Virus record (IMG/VR): IMGVR_UViG_2703718794_000005
Length of the DNA stretch: 13,313 nt
Source: a virus
Taxonomy: Duplodnaviria; Heunggongvirae; Uroviricota; Caudoviricetes
Direction: 5' to 3' (one strand)
Shown in pieces: positions 2,794 through 11,775 of the stretch (the stretch's first letter is position 1; every line of letters begins with the position of its first letter). The notes under the pieces are model-generated. The model ran no database searches and had not been told where the DNA came from. It saw only the letters and a program-made list of their open reading frames with translations. The translations under genes were made by a program, and so were the position numbers.

Positions 2794-2926
2794 CGCCCCG
2801 CAGTGATGGGAACACATACGGGGCGTCTAACCAAACCATTAATTGAGGTAACGATTATGGTTATAAAAGAGCATAGCTTACTCTTTATACACACACAAAC
2901 GCCCCGGAAACGGAATAATCCGTTTC
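2794..2926 (+). ncRNA. Candidate structured leader / small RNA (R2a) transcribed from the 2719-2746 promoter
   Basis: Hairpin cgccccg(2794-2800)..cggggcg(2819-2825), then tctaaccaa, SD+ATGGTT (2857), tatacacacacaaac; all shared with R2b (3543-3650); second hairpin gaaacgga/tccgtttc at 2907-2926. The long plus-strand ORF through here has junk composition, so the transcript is probably non-coding or encodes only a short peptide. Confidence 0.3.
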
Positions 2927-2945
2927 ATAGTTCGGTTTTGTGCAC

Positions 2946-3173
2946 TCATCCTGGCGGTCGGTTTTTGCCGGATTTAAGCCGCCGTGGGTATTTATCGACA
3001 AAATCTTCAAGGGCAAATTTTTCTGGTGGCACTAAGCGCGGCGCTGGTGGTGGTATTTTTGTTCTGGTTAGTTCTTCCTCAAGTCTGGCGCAGGCTTCTG
3101 ACTGCCTTTGCCGGATGATTTCATCATCTTGCGTTTGCGTGTCTTGTATTGGTGATAGTGTGTTGTTGGTCAT
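2946..3173 (-). CDS. Hypothetical small protein (75 aa), paralog of 2285-2488
   Basis: ORF start MTNN.. mirrors MTNK.. of the paralog; both preceded by the R1 element; shared C-terminal motif; protein-like composition. Confidence 0.55.
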   Translation of the reverse strand: MTNNTLSPIQDTQTQDDEIIRQRQSEACARLEEELTRTKIPPPAPRLVPPEKFALEDFVDKYPRRLKSGKNRPPG

Positions 3174-3181
3174 GATACTGC

Positions 3182-3225
3182 CCTGTAAAGCAATGCGCCG
3201 TAGTACCTCACACCACGGCGCTGAT
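3182..3225 (-). promoter_or_regulatory. Conserved 44-nt intercistronic hairpin element R1b
   Basis: cctgtaaagcaatgcgccgtagtacctcacaccacggcgctgat; on the minus-strand RNA forms a ~9-bp stem GCGCCGUGG/CUACGGCGC with GAGG in the loop; sits between stop of 3231-3419 and start of 2946-3173. Confidence 0.5.
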
Positions 3226-3230
3226 AGTGA

Positions 3231-3419
3231 TTATTCTGATTCTTTGGCCTTGCGACGCTGGCGGTATTCAACTTCCCGCTTTAATGCAGCTGTAACAAAC
3301 TGCCCTGTACTTTCGCCGGGCATTTTTACCGCCTCAACATTGTTCATAACTTCATGTGGAACCCTTGCCGCAACTGTTTGTGATTTTGCGTTTACTGCTT
3401 TTGTCGCCATGTTGAGCAC
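3231..3419 (-). CDS. Small DNA-binding regulator candidate (62 aa; possible ribbon-helix-helix type repressor)
   Basis: GTG start 4 nt after gagggg SD (alternative ATG 9 nt downstream); segment QTVAARVPHEVMNNVEAVK..GQFVTAALKREVE fits a beta-strand/helix/helix pattern; gene diverges from an operator array. Confidence 0.55.
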   Translation of the reverse strand: MLNMATKAVNAKSQTVAARVPHEVMNNVEAVKMPGESTGQFVTAALKREVEYRQRRKAKESE

Positions 3420-3460
3420 CCCTCATAAAAAACAAATGCAGTATGCAGGAAAAAAAATAA

Positions 3461-3537
3461 GTGTTCAACACTTGACGTGTTTAACACCTCGATTTAAATT
3501 GGTGTTCAACACCTTATTTAGGCAAGGTGTTGAAACG
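3461..3537. promoter_or_regulatory. Operator array: GTGTTcAACAC (3461-3471), GTGTTtAACAC (3477-3487), GTGTTcAACAC (3502-3512), GTGTTgAAAC (3527-3536), with divergent promoters
   Basis: Three perfect 5+1+5 palindromes plus a half-site variant, read directly; -35-like TTGACG (3472-3477) between O1 and O2 and -10-like TAAATT (3495-3500) for rightward transcription; leftward TTGAAC/CATACT candidate overlapping O1. Confidence 0.6.
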
Positions 3538-3542
3538 ACGAA

Positions 3543-3650
3543 ACCCCGCACTGTAGGAGCAGTAACGGGGCTTCTAACCAACAACGTAAACGAGGAGCCG
3601 TTATGGTTGCCGTAAATCATATACCACACCTTGTACACACACAAACTGCC
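3543..3650 (+). promoter_or_regulatory. Conserved structured leader R2b of the rightward operon
   Basis: Hairpin ccccg(3544-3548)..cgggg(3566-3570) with AGGAG in loop, tctaaccaa, SD gaggag + ATGGTT at 3603, tgtacacacacaaac; patchwise identical to R2a. Confidence 0.4.
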
Positions 3651-4689: not shown

Positions 4690-4989
4690 ATGAAACTTAA
4701 ATATTCTGGCTTAACTGCCAGTGGCAACACTCACCCTAAATTTACGCGCGGTGATATTTACCGCGACCAGTACGGCGGCACGGTAATGATTAAGGGCGTG
4801 GCGGGACGGTGCGTAACTTACCGCCGTGAAGGTTACGAATATGATTGCGTGATGCCTGTTTATCAGTTCCGGCGTGATTTTTCTCTGGTACAGACCGCGC
4901 CGCATAACGTGCCCACCAGCAACGCCAGGGCACGGGCAAACATCCAGAAGCTGAAAACCATGATTAACGGATTCAGGGGTAAAAAATGA
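4690..4989 (+). CDS. Hypothetical protein (99 aa), translationally coupled to the replication ATPase
   Basis: Stop overlaps start of next gene (ATGA at 4986-4989); protein-like composition. Confidence 0.6.
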   Translation: MKLKYSGLTASGNTHPKFTRGDIYRDQYGGTVMIKGVAGRCVTYRREGYEYDCVMPVYQFRRDFSLVQTAPHNVPTSNARARANIQKLKTMINGFRGKK

Positions 4990-6395
4990 AACTGGCACTG
5001 AACGTAAAACGATTACCGAAAGATAAATACACCGATGCGATTATTTTTGCGGGTATTGATGCTCACTCATTCGCAGAGCATTACATCATTGCACAGGCCA
5101 AAAAAGCAGGCGATCCAGTCCCTCCCGTTTATCTGGGGCGTTATCAGTTAAGCGAACTGGATAACCTCCAGATTGTTGATGATGGGCGATACAGGGCGAC
5201 GGTGATACGCGCCGGAAATATTGAAGAGCCGCAGCTGTTAACCATCGCCACGAAACTGGCGATCGCCGGAGTCCAGGAGGCGCGGCTACTTTCTGAAAAT
5301 TTCGAATTGCTGGAGGAATGGAGCGACCAGCTTCCACGGCTTAGGGAGGCATGGGAACGCGGGGAAAGCCTGGTCATGAAAAAAATTCCCCAGCGAAAAA
5401 CCACGCTACCGATGAGCGTTGGATCTACCGGATACGACACACAGCTTGATTACGTGGTAAAGGGGATTATTCCGGCATCGTCGCTTTGCAGCATATACGG
5501 GGCGAGCGGTTCCTATAAATCATTCCTTGCCGGATCGTGGGCGTGTCACGTTTCCACGGGCCGCCAGTGGGGAGGCCGCAGGGTGGCGCATGGCGCTGTT
5601 CTCTATGTGGTTGGTGAAGGCGGTATCGGCGTTCCGCGTCGTGTAAAAGCCTGGGAGGTTGTGCACGGTGAGCAGGTGAAAAATCTGTATCTGGTAAACC
5701 GTCCCATCTTTCCGGCGGTCCCGCTTGATGTTGATGAAATGGTTATCGCTGCCAGTCAGGTGGAGAGGGAAACGGGTAAACCTGTACGCATGATTATTCT
5801 GGATACGCTGGCGCGTTGCTTTGGTGGGAATGATGAAAATGATTCCCGTGATATGGGGGCGTTTATCCGTGGTTGTGACGAACTGAAACGGCGCACAGGG
5901 GCCACGGTGCTGGTGGTTCACCATTCCGGCAAGGATGAGACGAAAGGCGCGCGCGGTTCCAGTGCATTTCGTGCTTCGCTGGATGCTGAATACCGGATAC
6001 GCAGAGAGGACGCAGGCAGCGAAGCGCTGGTTATCTCATGCACCAAAATGAAGGACGCGGAGGAACTCAAAGAAGCCGCATATGACTTACGCGTGGTGGA
6101 GCTTTTTACCGACGCTGACGGGGAGTTAATCACGTCGCTGGTGGTGGTGGATAAGCCGCGCCCTCCCGTTGAACTGGAGCGCATCGAGGAGGCAGGGAAC
6201 AAGACGGAGAATCACGCCGCGCTATGGCAGTGCATCAGAACACGAACAGCACACGGGGAGGCGTGCACTATCGCCCTTCTCCGCGACGATATGAAAAAGC
6301 TGGGGTATGAGATGAAGCACTTCCGGCGCTGGCTGTACAAGCTGGAAAATGATGGCGTAATCGTTATTGATGGTGATGACGTGCGCCCGCTGTAA
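4986..6395 (+). CDS. Replication initiator / helicase-type RecA-fold ATPase (RepA/AAA_25-like)
   Basis: 469 aa; Walker A-like GASGSYKS, Walker B-like MIILDTLARC.GGNDEND, VLVVHHSGKD motif typical of RepA-like/DnaB-family ATPases; followed immediately by an iteron array. No primase (TOPRIM/zinc) motif noticed. Confidence 0.85.
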   Translation: MKLALNVKRLPKDKYTDAIIFAGIDAHSFAEHYIIAQAKKAGDPVPPVYLGRYQLSELDNLQIVDDGRYRATVIRAGNIEEPQLLTIATKLAIAGVQEARLLSENFELLEEWSDQLPRLREAWERGESLVMKKIPQRKTTLPMSVGSTGYDTQLDYVVKGIIPASSLCSIYGASGSYKSFLAGSWACHVSTGRQWGGRRVAHGAVLYVVGEGGIGVPRRVKAWEVVHGEQVKNLYLVNRPIFPAVPLDVDEMVIAASQVERETGKPVRMIILDTLARCFGGNDENDSRDMGAFIRGCDELKRRTGATVLVVHHSGKDETKGARGSSAFRASLDAEYRIRREDAGSEALVISCTKMKDAEELKEAAYDLRVVELFTDADGELITSLVVVDKPRPPVELERIEEAGNKTENHAALWQCIRTRTAHGEACTIALLRDDMKKLGYEMKHFRRWLYKLENDGVIVIDGDDVRPL

Positions 6396-6599
6396 AAAGT
6401 GGGGAGTAAAAGTGGGGAGAGCGGGGAATTTAACAAAATTGAAACATAATTACCCACTTTCCCACCTGTATATACCCAAAAAAGTGGGGAGTAAAAAACA
6501 TATTGAAAAACATAACGTTAGAATCACAAAAAAAAGAGGTGTGGAGACGGTGGGTAATTTCAAAAAGTGGGGAGCAAAAGTGGGGAGTAGTGGGGAATG
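6396..6599. repeat. Iteron-type replication origin: AGTGGGGAG x >=6 direct copies plus one inverted partial copy, AT-rich spacers
   Basis: Copies at 6398-6406, 6411-6419, 6420-6428 (degenerate), 6483-6491, 6566-6574, 6579-6587, 6589-6597; inverted cccacttt at 6453-6460; A/T-rich stretches between clusters; directly downstream of rep gene stop (6393-6395). Confidence 0.7.
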
Positions 6600-6848
6600 A
6601 ACAGAAAAACCAGAGATAAGACAGCGCCAAAATATAAAGCGTTAGACATGACAGAGCACGCTTTAAAGGTGGCAATCAGAACGATAGACCGCCACGCGGG
6701 GGAAGGATACGCGAAAGAACATCCCGACCTGATAAGCGCATTCATGACCACAGCAGCGGCAAACTTTGCCACGCTGACAGAACGTGAGATTGCCGAAGCG
6801 GAACAGGTAACAACCATCAACGTTAAAACCGGAGAGGTGGAATCATGA
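6597..6848 (+). CDS. Hypothetical protein (83 aa)
   Basis: ATG 6597 uses last iteron (GGGGA) as SD; stop overlaps SSB start (ATGA); charged helical composition. Confidence 0.55.
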   Translation: MNRKTRDKTAPKYKALDMTEHALKVAIRTIDRHAGEGYAKEHPDLISAFMTTAAANFATLTEREIAEAEQVTTINVKTGEVES

Positions 6849-7267
6849 CAGCACAGATAGCCGCTTACGGGCGGCTGGTGAACGACCCGCAGGTAAAACA
6901 GACCAGCAAGGGCACACCGATGACGCTGGTTCGTATGGCGGTATCGCTGCCATGCAGCCAGGCACAGGACGGACAGGCGACGTTATGGCTGTCCGTCATC
7001 GCATTTGGCAAGCAGGCCGACTTCCTGGCTAAACATCAAAAAGGCGACGTTGCCAGCGTATCCGGCACGATGCAGGTAAGCCAGTGGACAGGCCAGAACG
7101 GCGAAACGCGGCAGGGCTGGCAGGTTATCGCAGACAGCGTAATCAGTGCGAGAACGGCGCGACCGGGCGGCAAAAAAGGCCAGCAGGGGCAGGCTACTGA
7201 CGCACTGAACAGGGCAAAACAACAGGCGGGTAACGATGATCCGTACGGGGATAACATACCGTTTTAA
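6845..7267 (+). CDS. ssb: Single-stranded DNA-binding protein (SSB-like, OB fold with acidic DIPF-type tail)
   Basis: 140 aa; N-terminal OB-fold-like region (AYGRLVNDPQVKQTSKGTPMTLVRMAV..), Gly/Gln-rich linker, C-terminal DDPYGDNIPF resembling the SSB C-terminal DDDIPF tail. Confidence 0.8.
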   Translation: MTAQIAAYGRLVNDPQVKQTSKGTPMTLVRMAVSLPCSQAQDGQATLWLSVIAFGKQADFLAKHQKGDVASVSGTMQVSQWTGQNGETRQGWQVIADSVISARTARPGGKKGQQGQATDALNRAKQQAGNDDPYGDNIPF

Positions 7268-7283
7268 GCAACGAGTGACAGAA

Positions 7284-7305
7284 GCCGGAGCAATCCGGCT
7301 TTTTT
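7284..7305 (+). terminator. Intrinsic terminator (gccgga-gcaa-tccggc + T6)
   Basis: 6-bp GC stem, 4-nt loop, 6 T; 17 nt after SSB stop. Nearly identical hairpin recurs at 9725-9747. Confidence 0.7.
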
Positions 7306-7354
7306 ACGGGTCCTCCTGGCGGGGTGGGCCTGAACACGGGGCGGAGGGGCGCGG
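7306..7354 (+). other. Degenerate cos-like element (cosQ-like ACGGGTCCTCCTGG; cosN analogue GGGCGGAGGGGC at 7339-7350)
   Basis: Aligns with cos1 (9748-9794): terminator hairpin + ACGGGTCCT..GG + ACGGGGCGG; 12-mer differs from GGGCGGCGACCT at 4 positions. Confidence 0.4.
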
Positions 7355-7487
7355 AAAAAAGCGCATTTTTGTGGTTTTATCGTCATCATCATCATGAGCG
7401 TAATTTATTGTTTTTAATTGTTTTGATGCAAAAAAGATGATGGTTGTGGTTAATTTTCGTTCGACATCTTTGCAGGCAGATAAAAAA

Positions 7488-7523
7488 GCCCGATAAGGTC
7501 AGAGGAAACCTATCGGGCTTTTG
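7488..7523. terminator. Hairpin with flanking A-run and T-run (gcccgata..tatcgggc), possible bidirectional terminator
   Basis: 8-bp stem 7488-7495 / 7511-7518, 15-nt loop, aaaaaa upstream and ttttg downstream. Confidence 0.35.
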
Positions 7524-7600
7524 CATATGAGGTTTTTTTGGTGCACTGACACACATGATCGGGATAATCATTTCATAATTTGCAACACAACTCAACATCA

Positions 7601-7661
7601 TTGCACAAAATGCAATCATGATTATAATCATAACTGGATGAACATCCAGTTATGATTTTTT
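7601..7661 (+). promoter_or_regulatory. Candidate promoter of the head operon (TTGCAC 7601-7606, 16 bp, TATAAT 7623-7628) embedded in nested palindromes (7618-7631 and 7628-7655) followed by T6
   Basis: Palindrome atgattataatcat covers the -10; perfect 13-bp-arm palindrome tcataactggatg-aa-catccagttatga spans predicted +1; SD agagga 10 nt before ATG 7685. Confidence 0.45.
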
Positions 7662-7684
7662 AAGTCAAAGAGGAATTTCTGACT

Positions 7685-7891
7685 ATGGCAGAAGAGAAAA
7701 AAGGCGGGGTGACCGTGTACATAAGCCCCGACATCGTGGAGGCGCTCAAGGAACGCCACCAGCAGAACGTAAAAGCAGGCATCGCGGCAGGACTTGATCC
7801 GCTGGCGATGGTTGAGCCGTCAACAGGCTGGCAGGTACGCGCCTATTTACGCGCGGCGCTGGGCATGAATCAGACGCATGGAGGTGAATAA
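7685..7891 (+). CDS. Hypothetical protein (68 aa), translationally coupled to major capsid gene
   Basis: SD agagga; stop TAA overlaps ATG of next gene (TAATG, 7889-7893). Confidence 0.55.
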   Translation: MAEEKKGGVTVYISPDIVEALKERHQQNVKAGIAAGLDPLAMVEPSTGWQVRAYLRAALGMNQTHGGE

Positions 7892-8946
7892 TGGCAGGCA
7901 AAGCAACGGCACTTAACACTAACCAGCTTTTCGCGTACCTGAATCGCGGGGATATTGCGGAATTTAAATTCAGTCCGCTGTTTACCACGCTGTTTTTCCC
8001 GAACGTGGCGACATTCAACACCCAAAACATCATGCTGGACACCCTGGACATTGAAGAGGTTACGATGTCGGCGTTTTGTTCGCCTATGGTGGGTAGTCAG
8101 GTCCAGCGCGATAAAGGGTACGAAACCAGCACGATTAAACCTGGATACATGAAGCCGAAGCACGAAATCGATCCAACGAAAACCATCATGCGCATGGCCG
8201 GAGAAGATCCGGCACAGCTTAACGACCCTACCTATCGCCGTATGCGCCTGATTACTGGCAATATGCGCCGCCAGGTAAACGCCATAAAAGCGCGCGTGGA
8301 ATGGCTGGCGGTAAATGCGGTAACGACCGGAAAAAACATCATTGAGGGCGAAGGCATAGAGCGCTATGAAATCGACTGGAAGATACCGGAAAAAAACATC
8401 ATAGAGCAGGCCAAAGGCCGTAAATGGTCAGAGCAGGACAAAGAAACTCACGATCCAATCTATGATATTGAGCTTTATGCGGATCAGGGCAATTGCCCCG
8501 CAAACGTCATGATTATGGGCGCTGAGGTATGGCGCACGTTACGCAGCTTTAAAAAATTCCGCGAACTGTACGATCTTTCCCGTGGTTCAGAATCCGCCGC
8601 AGAACTGGCCTGCAAAAACCTGGGCGAAGTGGTGAGCTTTAAAGGCTATCTGGGCGATATTGCCCTTATCGTCTATTCCGGCAAATACACTGACAGCGAC
8701 GGCACCGAAAAATATTTCCTTGAGCCTGATTTGCTGGTCCTGGGCAACACCAACAATAAAGGGCTGGTGGCCTATGGTGCGATTATGGAACAGGAAGCGG
8801 TAAGAACGGGCGCAACGCAAAACATGTACTACCCGAAAAACTGGATTGAGGACGGCGATCCGGCGATTGAGTACGTGCAGACACACAGCGCACCGCAGCC
8901 GGTACCGGCAGATATTCGCAAATTTGTTACCGTCAAAATTGGTTAA
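7891..8946 (+). CDS. Major capsid protein, lambda gpE family
   Basis: 351 aa; blocks FKFSPLF..LFF, KPGYMKPKHE, DPTYRRMRLI, HDPIYDIELYA, RSFKKF, RGSESAAE, LGEVVSFKGYLGDIALIVYSGKY, FLEPDLLVLGNT, YPKNWIEDGDPA, SAP..AD..KFVTV align with lambda E protein as I recall it. Confidence 0.9.
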   Translation: MAGKATALNTNQLFAYLNRGDIAEFKFSPLFTTLFFPNVATFNTQNIMLDTLDIEEVTMSAFCSPMVGSQVQRDKGYETSTIKPGYMKPKHEIDPTKTIMRMAGEDPAQLNDPTYRRMRLITGNMRRQVNAIKARVEWLAVNAVTTGKNIIEGEGIERYEIDWKIPEKNIIEQAKGRKWSEQDKETHDPIYDIELYADQGNCPANVMIMGAEVWRTLRSFKKFRELYDLSRGSESAAELACKNLGEVVSFKGYLGDIALIVYSGKYTDSDGTEKYFLEPDLLVLGNTNNKGLVAYGAIMEQEAVRTGATQNMYYPKNWIEDGDPAIEYVQTHSAPQPVPADIRKFVTVKIG

Positions 8947-8957
8947 CGGGGGATTCT

Positions 8958-9293
8958 ATGGACACTCCATACATTGAGTTATTCGCAGGCAGTCAGCAGG
9001 TCGCCACGACGCTGGTACATTTTGCCGCTGATGCTGGCGTTATTCAGGAATTTACCCCGCTGATGCTGGCGGACAATGGCGAGTTTAAGCCGTGGGATGG
9101 TCAGGAATCTGGCAAGGCTGTTTATCTGACTTCGTACCCCGTGGACACGTCGACGCAGAAATCAGCACAGTGTTACAAGACGGGGATATTTAATATCGCT
9201 GCCGTAAACTGGCCTGAGAGCGCCGACACTGACGCGAAAAAATGCGCTGCCTTTGCGGGGTCTGGCGTATCCGTTCAGCCGCTGGCCCGATAA
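8958..9293 (+). CDS. Head decoration protein, lambda gpD-like
   Basis: 111 aa; TPLMLAD..WDG..YKTGIF..WPESADTDAKKCAAFAGSGVS matches remembered lambda D ([36 protein letters not shown]). Gene order E then D is reversed relative to lambda. Confidence 0.8.
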   Translation: MDTPYIELFAGSQQVATTLVHFAADAGVIQEFTPLMLADNGEFKPWDGQESGKAVYLTSYPVDTSTQKSAQCYKTGIFNIAAVNWPESADTDAKKCAAFAGSGVSVQPLAR

Positions 9294-9305
9294 GCAGGGG
9301 GAACG

Positions 9306-9719
9306 ATGGCAACGAATGAAAGCATCATGACGCTACCGCTGGCGAGTAAATTTAAAGCCGAAGCGCGGGCAATGGCTGACAGAGGGTTATCAACCTACGA
9401 GGCCATATATCAACTTAACAAACTGGAAGAGCAGGACAAGCCGCGCGCTGATGCGATTATGGCGCTTGATGAATCTGGCGACTATCAGCCGCTGTTACGT
9501 GCAATGGCAAACGTGCCTTGTATCGATGTTGGTACGGCTAAAAGCATCCTTAGCATGACCATAGAGCAGGAACGTCCGAAGGTTGCGCCGGAGCTTACCG
9601 CAGCCTTTGAAAACTTTATGGACATGCACAGCCCGCAAGCCGTATCAGCTGGCATGGCATACGATGGCAGAAACCCGGGCGATGACGGCGACATCGATCG
9701 CATACTGAAAACCATCTGA
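9306..9719 (+). CDS. Hypothetical protein (137 aa) within head module
   Basis: ORF with SD gggggaacg; acidic C-terminus; no recognisable homolog from memory. Confidence 0.6.
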   Translation: MATNESIMTLPLASKFKAEARAMADRGLSTYEAIYQLNKLEEQDKPRADAIMALDESGDYQPLLRAMANVPCIDVGTAKSILSMTIEQERPKVAPELTAAFENFMDMHSPQAVSAGMAYDGRNPGDDGDIDRILKTI

Positions 9720-9724
9720 GACAG

Positions 9725-9747
9725 GCCGGAGAAATCCGGCTTTTTTT
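9725..9747 (+). terminator. Intrinsic terminator (gccgga-gaaa-tccggc + T7)
   Basis: 6-bp GC stem, GAAA tetraloop, 7 T; 6 nt after stop of 9306-9719. Confidence 0.75.
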
Positions 9748-9830
9748 ACGGGTCCTTTCCGGCATATGGACCCGTTACGGGGCGGCGACCTCGCAGTTTT
9801 TCGCTATTTATGAGCCTTTTTCGGGTGCTG
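9748..9830 (+). other. cos site 1, lambda-type: cosQ-like ACGGGTCCTTTCCGG (9748-9762), cosN GGGCGGCGACCT (9780-9791), partial cosB-like (TTTTCGCTATTTATGA)
   Basis: Near-identical to the remembered lambda cos junction ACGGGTCCTTTCCGGTGATCCGACAGGTTACG|GGGCGGCGACCT|CGCGGGTTTTCGCTATTTATGAAAATTTTCCGG; precedes the Nu1-like gene as in lambda. Confidence 0.8.
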
Positions 9831-9924
9831 GTGGTGGTTTTGTTGTTCGCTCTATCTCTATGAATAAAAAGGGAAAGATAAAAACAATACACCAACCTGA
9901 AACATTACTTAAGTGGGGATATTG

Positions 9925-10467
9925 ATGAAATCGCACCTGATGAACAAAAAAAACATGGCGCAAAGCTGCCGTGTAAGTGCGACAGCGTTCGACAAGTGGC
10001 GAGTGACTCCCGTTGAACGTAAAGGACGCGAGGCTTTTTACGATGTTGCCAGCGTGATAGACAATCGGGTAAGCAATGCAATTAACCAGGTTACAAACGA
10101 CAAAGGCGAGATTGATGATGATGAACTCTTACGAGTCAGGATCAGATTACTGACCGCCCAGGCGGAGGCGCAGGAACTTAAAAACGAGCGCGATCGCGGT
10201 GACGTAATTGATACAGAGTTTTGCATGTACGCGCTTTCAAAACTGGCGAGCCAGATTTCTTCAATCATGGACAGCCTACCGCTTACGATGCAAAGGAGCT
10301 TCCCACAGATTACCCCCGCCATGCTGGATGGGCTTAAAAGGGAAGTGGTTAAAGCCTGTAATGCCAGTGCCAGAGTTGCCGACAACCTTCCGCAGATACT
10401 GGCTGATTACTTGAAAGAAACTACCGGAAACGTACCGGAAAAGTTGCTACAGAAGAAACGTGAGTAA
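9925..10467 (+). CDS. Small terminase subunit, lambda Nu1-like (TerS; could act as a packaging-redirecting TerS homolog)
   Basis: Central block LTAQAEAQELKNERDRGDVIDTEFCMYALSKLASQISSIMDSLPLTMQRSFPQ..LKREVVKACN aligns with lambda Nu1 (LTRAQADAQELKNARDSAEVVETAFCTFVLSRIAGEIASILDGLPLSVQRRFPE..LKRDIIKAMN). ATG 9925 has SD gtgggga; ORF track starts at GTG 9913; ATG 9940 also possible. Confidence 0.85.
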   Translation: MKSHLMNKKNMAQSCRVSATAFDKWRVTPVERKGREAFYDVASVIDNRVSNAINQVTNDKGEIDDDELLRVRIRLLTAQAEAQELKNERDRGDVIDTEFCMYALSKLASQISSIMDSLPLTMQRSFPQITPAMLDGLKREVVKACNASARVADNLPQILADYLKETTGNVPEKLLQKKRE

Positions 10468-10495
10468 CCGCAGCACAATTATTGAACAAAAATGA

Positions 10496-10557
10496 GAAAG
10501 GATCTGATAATGGCATTTTCTGGCTAAAATGCCTCGTGTCAGATCCTTTCTTTTTTT
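10496..10557 (+). terminator. Strong intrinsic terminator after terS (12-bp outer stem gaaaggatctga/tcagatcctttc enclosing an 8-bp inner hairpin, then T7)
   Basis: Read directly; on the minus strand the same inverted repeat corresponds in position to the lambda cosB-region inverted repeat (GAAAGGAAACGACAG..CTGTCGTTTCCTTTC). Confidence 0.7.
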
Positions 10558-10700
10558 AATGTTTTCATTGTTAAACAGTCTGTTACAGAGAAGAAGAACG
10601 GATCTGACTTTTGCCGGAAAATTTTCATAAACAGATAAAAACTGCGAGGTCGCCGCCCCGTAACGGGCCATAATTCCAGGAAGGACCCGACGACACCAGA
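10558..10700 (-). other. cos site 2, lambda-type, inverted relative to cos1: cosN GGGCGGCGACCT on minus strand (10647-10658), cosQ-like GGGTCCTTCCTGG, extended cosB-like region
   Basis: Reverse complement reads ..GGGTCCTTCCTGGAATTATGGCCCGTTACGGGGCGGCGACCTCGCAGTTTTTATCTGTTTATGAAAATTTTCCGG..GTTCTTCTTC..AAAGAAAGGA.., matching remembered lambda left end; 31-bp stretch 10637-10667 is the exact reverse complement of 9771-9801. Confidence 0.75.
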
Positions 10701-10722
10701 CTATCAGAACGATGGGGGCACA

Positions 10723-11004
10723 ATGACAGAAGCCGAACTACTGCGATTAATCCGTCGCGTTGCCGGAATCAGCCAGCAGGCTGACGAACAGGCCACGCAG
10801 CCGGACAGCGTGACCGCCGAAAATTATGCGCGTGTGGTTGCTGAGGTGATGCGCCGTGATGGTATTGAGCTTAACGGCGTGGATATGCGCAACATACGAA
10901 CCAGAGTCCTTGAGTTGCTGGCATACCGTCGCCGCGTGGAGATGTATCGGGAGAAGGAGAAAATCACGTATCACTGGAAGAAGCCGGAGCGGTTACGGCG
11001 GTAA
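10723..11004 (+). CDS. Hypothetical protein (93 aa)
   Basis: ATG after SD gatgggggc; Arg-rich basic C-terminus; no homolog recognised. Confidence 0.55.
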   Translation: MTEAELLRLIRRVAGISQQADEQATQPDSVTAENYARVVAEVMRRDGIELNGVDMRNIRTRVLELLAYRRRVEMYREKEKITYHWKKPERLRR

Positions 11005-11018
11005 CTTGTTGATTAAAA

Positions 11019-11093
11019 GGCGGCTCAATTCTGAGCTGGGTAGCTGACGGCGGTAACTGTTTGATATTCCCGATAACGCAAAATTGCGCTGGC
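11019..11093 (+). repeat. ~75-bp direct repeat, copy 1 (contains near-palindrome ctcaattctgag and palindrome gcgcaaaattgcgc)
   Basis: Closely matches 11206-11276 by eye; partial third copy at 10995-11015. Confidence 0.5.
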
Positions 11094-11205
11094 TACATCC
11101 CTCACATCTGAGGACTGTTAACCAGCAGGCCGGAATATATTCACAAACTACGAAATTTTCGTAGTTTAATTACTCGCCAGTTTATCGTTAACTAGTTGAT
11201 ATTTT

Positions 11206-11276
11206 CGGAAACCTCAATTTGAGGAAGTCGGCGCGGTAACTGTTTTATATTCCCGATAGCGCAAAAATGCGCGGTC
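11206..11276 (+). repeat. ~75-bp direct repeat, copy 2
   Basis: cggaaacctcaatttgaggaagtcggcgcggtaactgttttatattcccgatagcgcaaaaatgcgcggtc aligned to copy 1 by eye. Confidence 0.5.
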
Positions 11277-11413: not shown

Positions 11414-11704
11414 AGCGAAAAATTCTGATTAAGGTCACTGGCTGAATGGTCATAATGACCACGCAGACCATCAAGGCAACCATAGCGATCATCGTTACGG
11501 TTGGAGCTTTTCCGCCATTGGTGGAAAAGGTGCACATCTGGATCATCATTACGGTGATCAAGGGTATGTAAAACCCACCAGCCTGATTAAATGTTAACCG
11601 GAAAAAAATCCGGTAGCCCCGTTATGGGGATCCCCATATCGACATTAACGCCCCTCATGAATTGGTGCGCTTCCCCCTGGAAAGATTACCCGCCTGTATA
11701 TTTC

Positions 11705-11775
11705 TTGTGTCTATTTGTTCCACGTTGTTTCATACAGTGCACCGAACGGTGTAGTTAATGGTGTAGTCAATTTGC
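11705..11775. repeat. attR: right copy of island-bounding direct repeat (perfect core 11747-11767)
   Basis: cggtgtagttaatggtgtagt identical to 202-222; upstream arm ttgttccacgttgtttcatacagtgcaccgaa resembles the attL upstream arm. Confidence 0.75.

Follow-up and report, generated by a model that had tools for sequence, protein, structure and literature searches.

A third cos site of Stx-prophage type in an EcCICFT073-family island, a probable packaging signal for a second class of helper phage

Introduction

Why should a phage satellite that has packaging signals of its own carry a further cos-like block in the spacer between its replication and its capsid genes? The question is raised by the window analyzed here, that is, the whole stretch of 13,313 nt from IMG/VR record IMGVR_UViG_2703718794_000005, which is a phage-inducible chromosomal island (PICI) of the EcCICFT073 family of Escherichia coli, adjoining phoQ. 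[quoted passage not shown] A third cos site in islands of this type found no mention in the literature searched. The initial annotation of the window took the block at 7284-7354 for a degenerate copy of the lambda-type cos of the island, with a mutated cosN, either as a relic or as a decoy or termination signal. The analysis presented here points instead to positions 7306-7475 being a complete and intact lambda-family cos of a second packaging specificity, a third and functional site that would widen the range of helpers, a reading to which we assign a probability of roughly 0.6.

Results and Discussion

The island and its two lambda-type cos sites

The island is bounded by imperfect direct repeats (∼153-227 and 11698-11772), and phoQ lies to its right, the same as in E. 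coli CFT073. It carries genes for an integrase (228-1478), an AAA_25 replication protein (4986-6395), and SSB (6845-7267, with the stop codon at 7265-7267), followed by a head module (7685-9719, plus strand), which was recognized by Pfam and PHROG matches and is enclosed by two direct cos sites. The module begins with p68, upstream of the capsid gene, and comprises genes for a capsid protein resembling gpE of lambda (7891-8946) and a gpD-like decoration protein (8958-9293), both on the plus strand and assigned via Pfam/PHROG, and, after these, for the 137-aa protein p137 (9306-9719, plus strand). Over its residues 45-119, p137 matches the C-terminal part of PHROG53, a family of head-maturation proteases (profile positions 494-567 out of 583); possibly, it is a scaffold-like protein. 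More than 500 complete E. coli genomes, including those of Nissle 1917 and ATCC 25922, carry at least 80% of positions 6800-10800.

One lambda-type cos (9725-9900, plus strand; terminator 9725-9747, cosQ 9750-9756, cosN 9780-9791) is situated upstream of a gene for a Nu1-family small-terminase-like (TerS-like) protein (9913-10467, plus strand; Pfam/PHROG); without its terminator (9748-9900) it probably corresponds to the published cos1. The other (10490-10689, minus strand; cosQ 10682-10688, cosN 10647-10658) is inverted and probably corresponds to the published cos2. The exact 12-mer GGGCGGCGACCT is present in both. The cosB of the 9725-9900 site bears no resemblance to that of either of the other two cos sites of the window. 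The inverted site presumably has a lambda-style cosB (R3, AT-rich I1-like spacer, inverted R2, R1, with GATC-type cores); past I2, its sequence is unlike EcCICFT073 cos2 and unlike the cos of CFT073 prophage 4. The TerS-like protein, which occupies the position of Rpp, is 184 aa long and matches the Nu1 and PHROG57 small-terminase profiles over nearly their full length, whereas published Rpps have 139-154 aa (144 aa in CFT073). It may be a true TerS or another kind of redirecting protein.

Likeness of the block to the 9725-9791 unit is confined to common elements

All the elements that had been claimed for the block, a hairpin, a T-run, a cosQ, and a left half of cosN, are present and parallel those at 9725-9791, in the same orientation as the cos at 9750-9791, so that a third cos-like unit does exist. 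The hairpin GCCGGAGCAATCCGGC (7284-7299) with six Ts (7300-7305) corresponds to GCCGGAGAAATCCGGC (9725-9740) with seven Ts; ACGGGTCCT is found at both 7306-7314 and 9748-9756, and ACGGGGCGG (ACG, then GGGCGG) at both 7336-7344 and 9777-9785. The string TTTTTACGGGTCCT has two exact copies in the window (0.10 expected; none of 200 shuffles gave two). The 12-mers differ, GGGCGGAGGGGC at 7339-7350 versus GGGCGGCGACCT at 9780-9791. Pairwise alignment of 7280-7360 with 9720-9800 yielded a score of 52, which none of 1,000 shuffles reached (15.2 ± 2.3, maximum 26), and which stems from hairpin, T-run, and cosQ only (31 of 32 positions). The cos bodies proper (7306-7480 and 9749-9920) showed no likeness above that of shuffled sequences, 96 of 1,000 of which matched the score, and the same was true when the body at 7306-7480 was compared with the inverted cos (91 of 1,000).

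The hairpin itself has an explanation independent of cos. Being GC-rich, followed by a T-run, and located 3′ of the SSB stop codon, the element at 7284-7305 (plus strand) has the properties of an intrinsic terminator of the SSB gene. It was not listed by a simple consensus terminator scan and was therefore folded directly, resulting in −18.3 kcal/mol (z = −5.8); the copy at 9725 folds with −15.6 kcal/mol. Hairpins of the GCCGGAGCAATCCGGC type also follow PerC, a 74-aa gene, and p137 in related islands. Because of this recurrence, the likeness of the hairpins in the two units reflects reuse of a module-end terminator; the one at 7284-7305 is a recurrent module-boundary terminator and not part of a duplicated cos unit. 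[quoted passage not shown] Duplication of the cos at 9725-9794, followed by degeneration and mutation of cosN, would account for the common hairpin, T-run, cosQ (31/32), and ACGGGGCGG, but is a highly improbable origin of the block considering the shuffle-level likeness outside these elements (96/1,000), the hairpins at other module ends, and two properties of the block described below, its strong conservation and its likeness to the cos of another phage lineage (∼90% identity along 166 nt).

The spacer around the block was also inspected for other features. A second hairpin, GCCCGATAAGG...CCTATCGGGC (7477-7529; −22 kcal/mol), marks the point where homology to EcCICFT073 resumes. Scanning 7150-7950 for sigma-70 promoters found none. 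Two ORFs were rejected as genes: that at 7236-7397 (plus strand) has no PHROG match and no annotated CDS in the Nissle record, and that at 7392-7631 (minus strand) has neither a PHROG or Pfam match nor a Nissle CDS and is broken in islands without the block.

The block belongs to the cos lineage of VT1-Sakai and Stx prophages

When 6845-7900 was compared with E. coli genomes by BLAST, short matches emerged that begin at cosQ and have no annotated gene beneath them. Two of these are located between lysis genes and a gene for a DUF1441-family protein, followed by those for a GpA-type large terminase (TerL) and the portal, which identifies the cos position of a lambdoid prophage. The third is in another PICI, downstream of a gene for a ClpP-protease/capsid fusion. 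The alignment with prophage cos extends from cosQ to ∼7471. In a phage collection, the block matched VT1-Sakai (the Stx1 phage Sp15), where the site lies between Rz and H0025/terminase, eight Stx2-converting phages, and, more distantly, mEp460 and its relatives. The cos regions of VT1-Sakai and of prophage L002 are ∼90% identical to the block over 166 nt (scores 227-233, with 227 for VT1-Sakai; shuffles 19 ± 3, 0 of 1,000). The DUF1441 protein belongs to PHROG141 (“terminase small subunit”), a different family from PHROG57 (Nu1-like), to which the TerS-like protein of the island belongs. A pattern scan of IMG/VR retrieved at least 120 stretches with such a site; among the matches listed, ∼89 were in prophage and ∼31 in PICI context.

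Sites of this family, referred to as type A, consist of cosQ, a G-rich spacer, CACG followed by GGGCGG, a variable center of 4-6 nt, CGCGGAAAAA.GC, a T-rich segment, and CATCATC-type repeats arranged as R3, inverted R2, and R1. At practically every conserved column within cos, the window copy has the base of the prophage consensus. Prophages have centers of 4 nt as well as of 5 nt; AGGGG itself was found in islands only and in no prophage among the matches listed.

[quoted passage not shown] It is not of the Rpp-dependent type represented by EcCICFT073 cos1, because its cosB differs from that island-specific one. As judged from these sequence comparisons, 7306-7475 is a lambda-family cos of the VT1-Sakai/Stx-prophage lineage. 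It is, thus, no degenerate copy of the island's lambda-type cos, to which the initial annotation had traced it, but ∼90% identical to the cos of another lambdoid lineage. The end of the span originally proposed, 7284-7354, was set too early, as the homologous unit reaches ∼7471-7475.

Anatomy of the site

The complete type A cos (7306-7475, plus strand; cosQ, cosN, I2-like, and cosB-like segments) is homologous to the cos of VT1-Sakai-, Stx2-, and mEp460-type lambdoid prophages. Its cosQ, GGGTCCT (7308-7314, plus strand), is identical to the lambda heptamer and invariant in eight islands (see below). The top strand is predicted to be nicked before G7339, with cosQ 31 nt upstream; the natural sites found here have a spacing of 29-31 nt between cosQ and cosN. 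The cosN (7337-7352, plus strand) is composed of CG, the conserved left half GGGCGG, the right half AGGGGC, and GC, with a predicted 12-mer at 7339-7350 and the variable center at 7345-7349; its left part (ACG, then GGGCGG; 7336-7344) is likewise invariant in the eight islands. Then follow an I2-like spacer, GGAAAAAAGCGCATTTTTGTGGTTTTA (7353-7379, plus strand), located between cosN and the first R-like repeat and conserved in type A prophage cos, and three CATCATC-type repeats, each conserved with prophage cos: an R3-like repeat, TCGTCATCATCATCATG (7380-7396, plus strand), an inverted R2-like repeat, reading AAGATGATGGTTGTGG on the plus strand (7434-7449, minus strand), and an R1-like repeat, GTTCGACATCTTTG (7459-7472, plus strand), at which the prophage-cos homology ends. 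By analogy with cosB of lambda, these repeats are putative binding sites for a DUF1441-type TerS. An AT-rich spacer (7397-7433, plus strand), none of whose 36 columns varies among the eight islands, takes the place of I1 of lambda.

The 7-bp cosQ is highly conserved among lambda-like phages, where cosQ and base pairs 1-6 of cosN are maintained by selection; base pairs 7-12 vary naturally (N15, phiD326, Gifsy-1), and TerL nicks such sites efficiently (Feiss and colleagues, PMC4669245). The window copy has retained all 7 bases of cosQ, the CG preceding the nick, and GGGCGG. Its cosN, GGGCGGAGGGGCGCGG, has the same length as that of VT1-Sakai, GGGCGGGCGGGCGCGG, and as those of at least six type A prophages of the sample. 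The earlier reading of it as mutated is not supported, variation in the right half being normal in natural lambda-like sites (PMC4669245). One irregularity concerns the right-hand nick: the 12-mer GGGCGGAGGGGC is followed by GC, and a flanking CG would result from a stagger of 11 or 13 nt, not from one of 12 nt, such that with a 5-nt center, a 12-nt stagger and a flanking CG cannot be combined.

In the window copy, the nick is predicted at ∼7338/7339. The deposited genome of the inducible phage cdtI starts with GGGCGGGAGCGT and ends with ...GGCCTGCCACG, which amounts to a lambda-register nick in a site of the type A family, and the first G of this record is equivalent to the nick predicted for the window. 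The assembly of mEp460 is broken 5 nt from the cdtI-equivalent point. Among phage records and contigs, none was found to end at a type A1 cosN; only the type A2 record of cdtI starts there. Scanning genome contigs with a cosQ-proximal pattern gave mostly chance matches in GC-rich Actinobacteria, and only those in Pluralibacter and Leclercia seemed relevant.

The window-type site is conserved, but not universal

Eight window-type islands were aligned over 6845-7900. Third codon positions of SSB and p68 were variable in 36% and 46% of the columns, respectively (81/208, or 39%, together), first and second positions of both genes in ∼19% (78/416), the cos block (7306-7475) in only 3.5% (6/170), and the adjacent noncoding stretch (7476-7684) in 8% (17/209). 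Three of the six variable cos columns are in the center of cosN (7345, 7347, 7348), the others being 7374, 7443, and 7458. The block is, thus, ∼10-fold less variable than neighboring third codon positions (Fisher's test, 5e-18) and also differs from first and second positions (2e-7), whereas the difference from 7476-7684 is slight (p = 0.08). As 7476-7684 is rather conserved too, the low diversity could also reflect a recent spread of the whole intergenic segment instead of selection on cos. Across E. coli genomes, identity to the block is bimodal, with 157 at or above 95% (islands), ∼720 at 80-90% (prophages and other islands), and 20 in between, which indicates that the island allele is a distinct, conserved lineage not homogenized with prophage copies. 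One genome with an identical island has two further type A matches, which may represent resident helpers, whereas many carriers, e.g., Nissle 1917, have no second type A site in the same genome.

EcCICFT073 itself lacks the block. There, SSB and PerC are followed by the hairpin GCCGGAGCAATCCGGC with six Ts, GCGCCC, and the second hairpin (AAAAAAAGCCCGATAAGG...), such that exactly window positions 7306 to ∼7482 are missing. The model island has cos1 and cos2 as its sole cos sites, which accounts for these two having been published and a third one not. The block is also absent from the O157:H7 island and two others. Deleting both cos1 and cos2 of EcCICFT073 abolished its transfer by lambda and phi80 (PMC6092414). 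A related island that functions without the copy had been named beforehand as an observation that would make it incidental, and EcCICFT073 is such a case: the block is dispensable for transfer by lambda and phi80 and is also not needed for that by CFT073 prophage 4.

Related islands differ in architecture around cos

Comparison of related islands had been suggested as a means to see whether the head module is a variable insertion between two cos copies, and this was borne out. In the arrangement of the window, SSB and the type A cos are followed by p68, gpE, gpD, and p137, the lambda-type cos, the TerS-like gene, the inverted cos, and p93. In a second, SSB is followed by two type A cos sites that enclose a gene for a ClpP-MCP fusion, with the TerS-like gene (not in all cases) and p93 downstream. 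A third has SSB, the head module, and a cos, without an upstream cos; in a fourth, SSB, a type A cos, and p93 follow each other without a head module. Since one architecture lacks the head module and others lack the upstream copy, the module between the cos positions is a variable cassette. The fourth arrangement is represented by L161 (IMGVR_UViG_2703718800_000016; 7,358 nt), which has an integrase, SSB, a single type A cos, and a 93-aa terminal gene, but no head genes; its sole cos carries the 12-mer of the window, GGGCGGAGGGGC, and the island is possibly the product of a deletion between two direct cos copies.

A scan anchored on the 3′ end of SSB, and thus unbiased for or against cos, collected 47 junctions, ∼13 of which have a cos with consensus cosQ, ∼20 a type A cos whose cosQ reads AGGTACT instead of GGGTCCT, and ∼14 none. 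All copies of the AGGTACT clade (L170, 6440-6620, and ∼20 IMG/VR loci, e.g., L055, L077, L125, and L135) are upstream of the ClpP-MCP gene, with a second cos of intact cosQ beyond it wherever the contig reaches far enough. In this clade, 15% of the columns of the cos body vary, compared with 8% in SSB, 5% in ClpP-MCP, and 20% in intergenic DNA. These copies drift, evolving about as fast as intergenic DNA, which is the opposite of the window-type copy; what does not fit is the near-invariance from the mutated cosQ to the left half of cosN (1 of 38 columns). The position can, thus, hold relics.

Whether the window copy is one of them was weighed on these data. According to this alternative, cos sites are the junctions at which islands exchange head and packaging cassettes, and the block is a passenger or relic, without a role, that arrived with the SSB module or was left behind by a cassette exchange. 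The patchy presence among the 47 junctions, the efficient transfer of EcCICFT073 without the block (PMC6092414), the drift of the cosQ-mutant clade, and the resemblance of L161 to a deletion between direct copies all agree with it. [quoted passage not shown] This conservation, far stronger than in the flanking genes and unlike that expected of a relic, is the main argument against neutrality.

In the right part of the island, the TerS-like/Rpp gene is flanked by inverted cos repeats (9749-9824, plus strand, and 10614-10689, minus strand) of 76 nt and 82% complementarity. In L169 (NZ_CM151361.1, 8990-9800), compared with CFT073 (L167, 13029-13839), the RppA gene, whose product has the same protein accession in both, is on the opposite strand, and the sequences following cosN are swapped, which suggests that the segment inverts via recombination between the cos sites.

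A candidate packaging signal for a second class of helper

If 7306-7475 is indeed a functional cos of second specificity, the DUF1441-type TerS of a matching phage growing in the cell would bind the R-like repeats, and its TerL would nick at ∼7338/7339 and ∼12 nt downstream. Island concatemers would then be packaged rightwards, with about four units of 11.5 kb per phage-sized head and independently of the TerS-like/Rpp protein of the island. With three cos sites, each having a cosB unlike the others (7306-7475, 9748-9900, and the inverted 10490-10689), the island would have a wider helper range. In a subset of EcCICFT073-family islands, the additional site is accommodated in the spacer between the replication module, ending in the SSB terminator, and the capsid-gene operon.

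This reading is favored because the homologous prophage sites occupy the canonical position Rz-cos-TerS-TerL; because of the ∼90% identity over 166 nt, the VT1-Sakai length of cosN, and the agreement with the prophage consensus; because variation is limited to 6 of 170 cos columns, with three in the center of cosN; because the island allele stays distinct from prophage copies (157 genomes at or above 95%); and because a genome with the identical island has two further type A matches and the only cos of L161 bears the GGGCGGAGGGGC 12-mer. It draws, in addition, on the natural variation of cosN (PMC4669245), on the packaging of Sp15 (VT1-Sakai) DNA into particles (PMC2669165), on the start of the cdtI record, and on the description of a PICI with ∼90% of the cos of its presumed helper (PMC10111431). 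Counting against it are the islands without the block (EcCICFT073, that of O157:H7, and others), the drifting cosQ mutants of the sister clade, the comparable conservation of 7476-7684 (p = 0.08), the absence of the AGGGG center from the prophages listed, the 12-nt stagger without a flanking CG, and the many carriers without a second type A site.

A termination or processivity element for terminases that started at a lambda-type cos, which is close to the earlier idea of a decoy or termination signal, is a further alternative. The site is 2.44 kb upstream of cos1, and a terminase coming round the concatemer would encounter it first; the cosQ and left cosN half of the site could end packaging, or modulate cutting in dependence of headful. 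Orientation as in cos1 and the intact cosQ are compatible with such a role, as is the frequent destruction of the upstream cosQ in islands with two direct type A cos sites, which would be expected if upstream termination were harmful. [quoted passage not shown] As no matching cosB is needed, the site could also be cut by terminases begun at cos1, with mismatched ends resulting. A cut here would, however, produce ends with six mismatches and deprive the last unit of the head module; the whole cosB-like region, which termination alone does not require, is conserved as well; and the I2-like segment is unlike that of lambda. Taken together, termination is an improbable role for the site.

A broader proposal, speculative and with rather little probability as a whole, is that the cos sites of these islands form an array of exchangeable cassettes, by which the helper phages exploited are set and can be switched. 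Its members would be a phage-type cos (Stx/VT1-Sakai-like), an inverted cos, likewise of phage type, and an island-specific cos served by the TerS-like/Rpp protein; recombination would flip the segment between the inverted sites, and the upstream cosQ of two direct cos sites would be selectively knocked out, leaving a site that starts packaging but cannot end it. Were this so, Stx-converting phages would mobilize the islands of strains such as Nissle 1917.

Relation to known packaging systems

The cos sites of VT1-Sakai (Sp15), Stx2 prophages, cdtI, and mEp460, which go with a DUF1441/PHROG141 TerS and a GpA-type TerL, have the order of elements and the R-like repeats in common with 7306-7475; VT1-Sakai, the ∼90% identity over 166 nt aside, also has the same cosQ-cosN spacing and cosN length. 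In contrast to these sites, that of the window is placed between the SSB and capsid genes of a satellite, has no terS and terL downstream, and bears the AGGGG center, which is absent from the prophages among the matches listed. Compared with lambda (cosQ-cosN-I2-R3-I1-R2-R1), the architecture, the cosQ heptamer, and the left half with CG and GGGCGG are alike, and the first R-like repeat is likewise ∼42-58 bp from the predicted end, whereas all six bases of the right half of cosN, I2, and the R sequences differ, for which reason a different TerS specificity would be expected.

Several cos sites per island, as in the window, are already known from EcCICFT073 (Fillol-Salom 2018, 2019; Murialdo and Feiss 2022). 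Whereas cos1 of that island has an island-specific cosB read by the Rpp-TerS heterodimer, the site described here has a phage-type cosB of another lineage, lies 2.4 kb upstream of cos1, and is absent from EcCICFT073 itself. The helper-embedded PICI 11capE and SaPIbov5 are satellites with a near-copy of the helper cos; like the window island, 11capE has ∼90% of a phage cos region (258 bp; PMC10111431). Unlike in these two, the window site is an additional, third cos, and its lineage differs from that of the other cos sites and of the lambda-type capsid genes of the island. Satellites with a near-copy of a helper cos and islands with two cos sites were, thus, known before; what is new is a third cos that belongs to another phage lineage, occupies another position, and is widespread, though absent from the model island.

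Islands with three cos sites are present in at least 157 complete E. coli genomes, Nissle 1917 and ATCC 25922 among them, which bears on the open question of why EcCICFT073-family islands possess several. The island can probably be packaged by more than one kind of helper, and the prediction is that a second helper class would mobilize such islands, or suffer interference from them, independently of Rpp. Cos-flanked head cassettes, the cosQ-mutant clade, and the cos-flanked invertible segment provide a comparative framework for the assembly of packaging modules in satellites.

Other repeats in the window

A search of the whole window against Rfam gave no match. Directly after the replication gene, at 6394-6606, AAAAAGTGGGGAG(T/C)AAAA occurs three times at intervals of 83-85 nt; these copies are probably the iterons of the island's replication origin; with these at 6394-6606, an ori role considered for the 7306-7475 block was rejected. 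The adjacent ORFs 2094-2846 and 2803-3615 have no Pfam match but contain a 75-nt direct repeat of 80% identity (2478-2552 and 3163-3237) and are likely paralogous genes. Finally, the stretch that separates the right att repeat from the last island gene contains a 40-nt repeat three times (11050-11089, 11185-11224, and 11233-11272), the latter two copies being 93% and 65% identical to the first.
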